DNA of 19,156 nt from a virus. Taxonomy: Duplodnaviria > Heunggongvirae > Uroviricota > Caudoviricetes. Positions 14,963-15,457 of this stretch are shown in pieces. The number at the start of each line of letters is the position of its first letter. Within the stretch, counting starts at the first letter, position 1. The position numbers and the translations under genes are program-made. The notes under the pieces are model-generated. The model saw only the letters and a program-made list of their open reading frames with translations, was not told the origin of the DNA and did not search any database. The DNA is taken from positions 1-19,156 of the IMG/VR virus record IMGVR_UViG_2548876862_000001. One strand, 5' to 3'.

Positions 14963-15457
14963 TTATTTTATAGTTTTTATGAATTCTTTATTAAATCCCT
15001 TCGCTTCTCCGGGGTATCTTCCGAAGACAATTTTTATAAAAACAGAAAAAATAAAGATAGCAACGCTTAACAACAATTGCAGTATCATTGGAACCCAAAG
15101 AACTACAGGCTCTATATTCATGAAACCAAATATTCTTCCGGCGATCATGGCGAAGTACCACACTGTTATCAGCAAACTTAGTGGCATATGAATTACTGAT
15201 ATTACCAATCCAAGAGCATCAGTAATTCTGTTTTCAAATTTTTCAGGGGAAAACTTTTCTTTAAGGTAATTCAGTGCGCAGGCCTCATTCTCTGGATTTT
15301 CAGCATTTTTCCCTATAGCAATAGAAATCTCAGATATCCTTGATTCAATTCTTTTACGTTTAATAAAACTAGAAAAAAAGAACCACGCAATCTGCAACCC
15401 TATCCCCAGAAATAGAGTTGCGGCAACTAGCACAGCGTAACTCATAGAATCAGACAC
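14963..15457 (-). CDS. AT-rich small inner-membrane protein with three predicted TM helices; candidate superinfection-exclusion protein, SieA-like by position
   Basis: GTG start at 15457 sits 5 nt after a perfect AAGGAGG on the minus strand. Hydrophobic segments [46 protein letters not shown] and [24 protein letters not shown]. Roughly one-third GC against about half in the structural genes. Same position and orientation as sieA in P22. Confidence 0.7.

Follow-up and report, generated by a model that had tools for sequence, protein, structure and literature searches.

Sequence comparison identifies a type A sieA, orthologous to that of phage P22, in a P22-like prophage most likely from Escherichia coli

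SieA and other prophage proteins that block DNA entry

SieA is the product of the textbook exclusion gene of phage P22, and earlier work on it was reportedly carried out by Hofer et al. in 1995. Leavitt et al. found in 2024 that P22 sieA, present once in the chromosome together with 85 bp of the DNA upstream, suffices for exclusion (PMC10883804). Under these conditions, plating of P22 falls by at least 1e7-fold, lysogenization falls by 1e5-fold, and the K+ efflux induced by the phage is abolished, which places the block at DNA entry; the gene acts at this step rather than by killing the cell, and it has little or no effect on growth (PMC10883804). On fractionation, FLAG-tagged P22 SieA is recovered from the inner membrane only, and the protein has three transmembrane (TM) helices according to TMHMM (PMC10883804). 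Exclusion is limited to P22-like phages, and P22 SieA is also active in E. coli, where it acts against CUS-3 (PMC10883804).

Genetic evidence connects this block with two ejection proteins. Escape from P22 SieA takes the gp16 changes G532W and P546S plus one change in gp20 (T338I, T341I, A348T, or G350D), all in the C-terminal parts of the two proteins; P546S alone gives no escape, and the ejection proteins of HK620 confer partial resistance (PMC10883804). In the model of Leavitt et al., SieA disturbs the assembly or function of a gp20/gp16 conduit at the inner membrane (PMC10883804).

Three types of SieA (A, B, and C) have been distinguished; P22-like prophages of Salmonella and E. coli carry types A and B, with the gene placed between their homologues of gene 16 and gene 9 (PMC10883804). 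Types A and B are only 24% identical, yet their exclusion spectra are indistinguishable; the best-conserved feature across all types is the motif FxRYPxEAxxFNK, at residues 145 to 157 of the P22 protein (PMC10883804). HK97 gp15, Tuc2009 Sie2009, and TP-J34 Ltp resemble SieA in being prophage membrane proteins that block DNA entry by related phages and in that escape from them maps to injection-conduit proteins (PMC10883804). They differ from it in targeting long-tailed phages by way of the tape-measure protein rather than podovirus ejection proteins.

Identity, genomic position, and anatomy of the window's SieA

We analyzed a stretch of viral DNA of 19,156 nucleotides, referred to here as the window. 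It covers the half of a P22-like genome that serves virion assembly, with genes for the small and large terminase subunits, portal, coat, and a gp10-like protein. Just upstream of the small terminase gene is an ORF for a Rha-like regulator or antirepressor (positions 233 to 793, plus strand; PHROG 518, E = 1.9e-78). The features that follow the gp10-like gene are these:

11027-11722, gp7 ejection-protein gene
11732-13102, plus strand, gene 20 homologue, ejection protein, 456 aa (PHROG 917, E = 2.5e-210)
13099-14940, plus strand, gene 16 homologue, ejection/DNA transfer protein, 613 aa (PHROG 770, E = 8.5e-279)
14963-15457, minus strand, sieA coding sequence for a type A SieA, 164 aa including the GTG start (ORF list and homology)
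15462-15470, minus strand, Shine-Dalgarno (SD) sequence TAAGGAGGT, 4 nt upstream of the sieA GTG (direct sequence reading)
15493-15521, minus strand, candidate promoter-like site TTGATA-17-CATTAT (consensus scan, 9/12 matches)
15518-16159, minus strand, repressor gene with helix-turn-helix and peptidase S24 domains (LexA/CI-like), 213 aa (Pfam HTH_3, 9e-13; Peptidase_S24, 1.3e-12)
16259-16432, plus strand, Arc/ParD-like protein, 57 aa
16401-17132, plus strand, Bro-N/P22AR antirepressor, 243 aa
17170-17946, plus strand, second antirepressor (PHROG 1726)
17973-18311, minus strand, Mnt/Arc-like gene adjoining the tailspike gene
from about 18363 and running off the window, N terminus of a P22-type tailspike (six-frame reading)

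The ORF at 14963 to 15457, which ends in a TAA stop codon (14963 to 14965), is a type A sieA and, by sequence comparison, an orthologue of P22 sieA. When its product was compared by tblastn with 50,697 phage records, the search returned 41 matches, all in Salmonella P22-like phages and at 91.5 to 93.2% identity; 38 of the 40 matches listed span residues 1 to 164 of SieA. The matches sit on genes annotated as sieA or superinfection exclusion protein, the P22 gene among them. Against annotated P22 sieA, amino acid identity is 92.1% over residues 1 to 164 in tblastn and about 92 to 93% overall. PHROG 7745, "superinfection exclusion SieA-like," matches all 164 residues (E = 7e-109). The original prediction had assigned the gene to SieA by its position and size, and these matches bear it out.

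At the nucleotide level, the gene aligns with P22 sieA without gaps and differs at 21 of 495 positions (95.8% identity). The dN/dS ratio of this comparison is 0.36, indicating purifying selection. The full-length, gap-free protein alignment contains 12 substitutions relative to P22 (L26F, N30S, L37I, V44I, K53E, Y60C, V61A, R73K, I85V, I91M, I132V, and N153K). Most are conservative, and none falls on a fixed position of the FxRYPxEAxxFNK motif, which is found in the C-terminal part of the window's protein at the same residues, 145 to 157, as in P22; K53E, a charge reversal, and Y60C change the cytoplasmic loop. With its 164 aa, aligned from residue 1 of P22 SieA, the protein has the length of type A (about 162 to 164 aa) and lacks the N-terminal extension seen in types B and C. 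This is not a chance ORF: 41 phage records and, in addition, 35 E. coli genomes conserve it over the full length, and the dN/dS value points the same way.

The location is likewise that of type A, between the gene 16 homologue and the region of the P22-type tailspike (gene 9). The annotated order in P22 is 16, sieA (on the opposite strand), orf59a, mnt, arc, ant, 9. Here, too, sieA is convergent with gene 16, lying 22 nt downstream of it, so that the P22-like position claimed for the gene in the original prediction holds, and the orientation is that of P22 as well. The immI regulators differ, however: in P22, mnt/orf59a and a terminator precede sieA, for which a separate promoter, PsieA, is annotated, whereas the window's sieA is found 60 nt downstream of the gene for the 213-aa repressor on the same strand. 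This repressor, which stands in the immI region in place of P22 orf59a/mnt, is a protein present in many E. coli prophages (WP_001008290.1).

The host also appears to differ, being E. coli here and Salmonella for P22. The closest DNA match to positions 14700 to 16300 is the chromosome of the E. coli blood isolate AHB29 (99.7% identity over 100% of the length). Among 5,426 complete E. coli genomes, the sieA sequence is present at 100% identity in 9, at 99% or more in 23, and at 95% or more in 35, and a protein identical to the window's SieA is already in RefSeq (WP_001519614.1). On the basis of the AHB29 match and these copies, the window most likely derives from a P22-like (Lederbergvirus-type) prophage of E. 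coli.

The gene was predicted to encode a polytopic membrane protein with three TM segments and a cytoplasmic-looking charged loop, to be AT-rich, and to carry a perfect SD sequence, and each of these descriptions is accurate. Kyte-Doolittle analysis (19-residue windows, threshold 1.6) gives three hydrophobic blocks, at about residues 5 to 32, 78 to 113, and 112 to 150. Ten Lys and Arg residues fall in the loop at residues 33 to 79, which starts with KRKR; the C-terminal tail contains five, the short loop at residues 107 to 116 one, and the N terminus none. By the positive-inside rule, this distribution fits an N-out/C-in topology with the charged loop in the cytoplasm. An AlphaFold2 model, computed from the single SieA sequence and used for secondary structure only, is all-helical (residues 2 to 51, 57 to 68, 71 to 109, 117 to 147, and 152 to 163) at a modest confidence (pLDDT of 67.5). 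Together, the hydrophobic blocks, the charge distribution, and the modeled helices at 2 to 51, 71 to 109, and 117 to 147 point to three TM helices, as in P22 SieA.

The GC content of the ORF is 0.356, compared with 0.483 for the whole window, 0.472 for gene 16, and 0.421 for the repressor gene. Only 0.04% of all 495-nt windows in the 19 kb have a GC content this low, and the lowest of them begins at position 14960. The contrast is sharp on the gene 16 side only; the right flank, formed by the repressor gene's 3' part, is itself fairly AT-rich (0.37 to 0.38 in 300-nt windows). The SD sequence TAAGGAGGT, 4 nt before the GTG, complements the 3' end of 16S rRNA over 9 nt. Both the SD sequence and the GTG start are the same in P22.

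SieA of the window can now be labeled with confidence, and the value of this result lies in annotation. The gene is already known, and finding it here carries little weight as a discovery: the mechanism of SieA was worked out in 2024, in a paper that also reported type A copies from P22-like prophages of E. coli (PMC10883804).

Putative exclusion function and resident ejection proteins

From the experiments on P22 SieA, and given 93% identity to that protein, we infer that the window's SieA resides in the membrane, excludes superinfecting phages, and targets gp16 and gp20. We consider it very probable that the locus is a prophage type A sieA whose product acts at the inner membrane to block the delivery of P22-like phage DNA through the gp20/gp16 conduit. 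In this mechanism, the prophage would probably express sieA, with transcription either starting at a weak promoter immediately upstream or reading through from the immI repressor gene. The protein would insert into the inner membrane by its three helices, with the N terminus in the periplasm and with the charged loop and the C-terminal tail carrying the FxRYPxEAxxFNK motif on the cytoplasmic side. There it would interfere with how the trans-envelope conduit formed by ejected gp20 and gp16 assembles or functions, stopping the DNA of superinfecting P22-like phages from crossing the inner membrane; other phages would be unaffected.

The resident gp16 and gp20 would be the two targets of SieA by analogy with P22. 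The gp20 of the window is 62% identical to P22 gp20 and conserves all four escape positions (T338, T341, A348, and G350). The gp16 is of the P22 type over most of its length, with 60 to 98% identity to P22 per block of 50 residues; it retains G532, but the residue aligned with P22 P546 is Thr. This Thr is probably without consequence, given that P546S by itself does not suffice for escape in P22. The gp16 sequence is also mosaic, with a patch at about residues 100 to 200 that is 98 to 100% identical to phage JEP4.

It is improbable that this SieA homologue has an altered target range or has lost activity through its 12 substitutions, having become tuned, for example, to ejection proteins from P22-like phages of E. 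coli. In favor of such a shift, half of the 12 differences lie in the cytoplasmic loop, the resident gp16 departs from P22 at an escape position, and ejection proteins of the HK620 type partly escape P22 SieA (PMC10883804). Types A and B, however, exclude the same phages across a far greater distance (PMC10883804), which makes it unlikely that a divergence of 7% matters; purifying selection on the gene, the intact motif, and the conservation of the allele, to 99% identity or above, across 23 complete E. coli genomes also argue against this reading.

Less probable still is a small membrane protein with some other role (abortive infection, a holin-like or toxic activity, or lysogenic conversion) for which exclusion is not the function in the host. 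Against it stands the near-identity to an experimentally characterized protein, P22 SieA, whose gene stops DNA entry rather than killing the cell and hardly affects growth (PMC10883804), while the features that would accommodate it are the absence of a Pfam, NCBIfam, or PADLOC model for the protein and the label "hypothetical protein" on most RefSeq copies. Searches with the sieA product returned only sub-threshold noise from Pfam (Kri1 and DUF6161) and no match from NCBIfam or PADLOC; these results say nothing against SieA because no curated family model exists in these collections. The missing model also explains why most E. coli copies are called hypothetical, although "superinfection exclusion protein A" is sometimes used. 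The original prediction had likewise allowed for an unrelated exclusion or abortive-infection determinant, an alternative that is not needed now that sequence comparison has confirmed SieA.

Upstream region and alternative occupants of the sieA slot

Homology to P22 ends 31 nt upstream of the sieA start, and the sequence of P22 PsieA is therefore not shared. The promoter-like site TTGATA-17-CATTAT lies at a position equivalent to that of annotated PsieA, and its -35 hexamer shares bases with the repressor gene's stop codon. Because it matches the consensus at 9 of 12 positions in a region where the consensus scan found no excess of such sites over shuffled sequence, it is a candidate only. No terminator-like site was found between the repressor gene and sieA (15458 to 15517), so that read-through from the former into the latter is possible.

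About 420 complete E. coli genomes carry the flanks of sieA, and only one carries the whole 1.6 kb. The sieA slot, which separates gene 16 from the repressor gene, is a swap site that contains one of four different ORFs in the 5,426 complete genomes:

Type A sieA, 35 genomes
Type B sieA, as in E. coli HS, 21 genomes
Unannotated ORF with two TM segments, 62 aa, as in JEP4 and GN02050, 89 genomes
Protein with a signal-peptide-like N terminus, 129 aa (PHROG 2651), 147 genomes

We compared window positions 15455 to 15530 with the corresponding regions of L002 (3170 to 3460), L004 (1263 to 1978), L005 (1138 to 1399), and L006 (1266 to 1728). All four ORFs have about 95 nt of upstream sequence in common, including the promoter-like site and the SD sequence, and the homology also covers the 3' end of the repressor gene. 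On the coding strand, the sequence directly 5' of the sieA GTG is ...CAAAACTAAGGAGGTTGGT, and its SD element is invariant in P22 and in every alternative cassette of the slot. For the three occupants other than type B sieA, homology breaks exactly at the GTG (window position 15455); for type B sieA, it stops at 15464, which is about 7 nt upstream of that gene's ATG.

The start codon of sieA has been called uncertain (PMC10883804). Because the homology of the slot variants breaks exactly at the GTG, the comparison supports this codon, and a product of 164 aa, as the probable true start; the SD-GTG junction shared with the sister cassettes is a small argument in its favor. Three other ORFs of the slot need the GTG, which gives the 62-aa ORF its MKKKF... 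beginning and the 129-aa ORF a proper signal peptide. We rejected the ATG at codon 5 (160 aa) as the sieA start, as it is 16 nt from the SD sequence and the GTG is the junction common to the other ORFs.

The pattern of shared upstream sequence and homology breaks also suggests that all four occupants are envelope proteins expressed from the prophage. A tentative and rather doubtful extension of this idea is that the slot might be a dedicated swap site, at which a fixed module (promoter-like site, CAAAACTAAGGAGGTTGGT, and GTG) would drive interchangeable ORFs for envelope proteins, each fused to it precisely at the start codon. The 62-aa and 129-aa proteins would then be possible undescribed exclusion factors of P22-like prophages in E. 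coli, and sieA may be cotranscribed with the LexA-like repressor gene.

In E. coli HS, prophage HS1 carries a type B SieA (EcHS_A0321) in this slot, beside a gene for the same 213-aa repressor. In experiments, the exclusion spectrum of this type B protein matched that of P22 SieA (PMC10883804). Its homology to the window's protein is weak (29% identity in the alignment; PHROG 7745, E = 6.5e-21) but includes the motif as RYPGEA..FNK. It differs in its length of 212 aa, with a longer C terminus and about 30 extra N-terminal residues that contain an additional predicted TM segment, and in its ATG start and slightly different spacer.

The 62-aa ORF (MKKKFVNVAKCAIFIFFMTF...), whose product is a candidate small membrane protein, lies behind the same SD-GTG at 1138 to 1326 of L005 (minus strand) and at about 3205 to 3392 of L002 (minus strand). 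It fills the seemingly empty slot of phage JEP4 and E. coli GN02050, a place that bears no annotated feature in 89 E. coli genomes.
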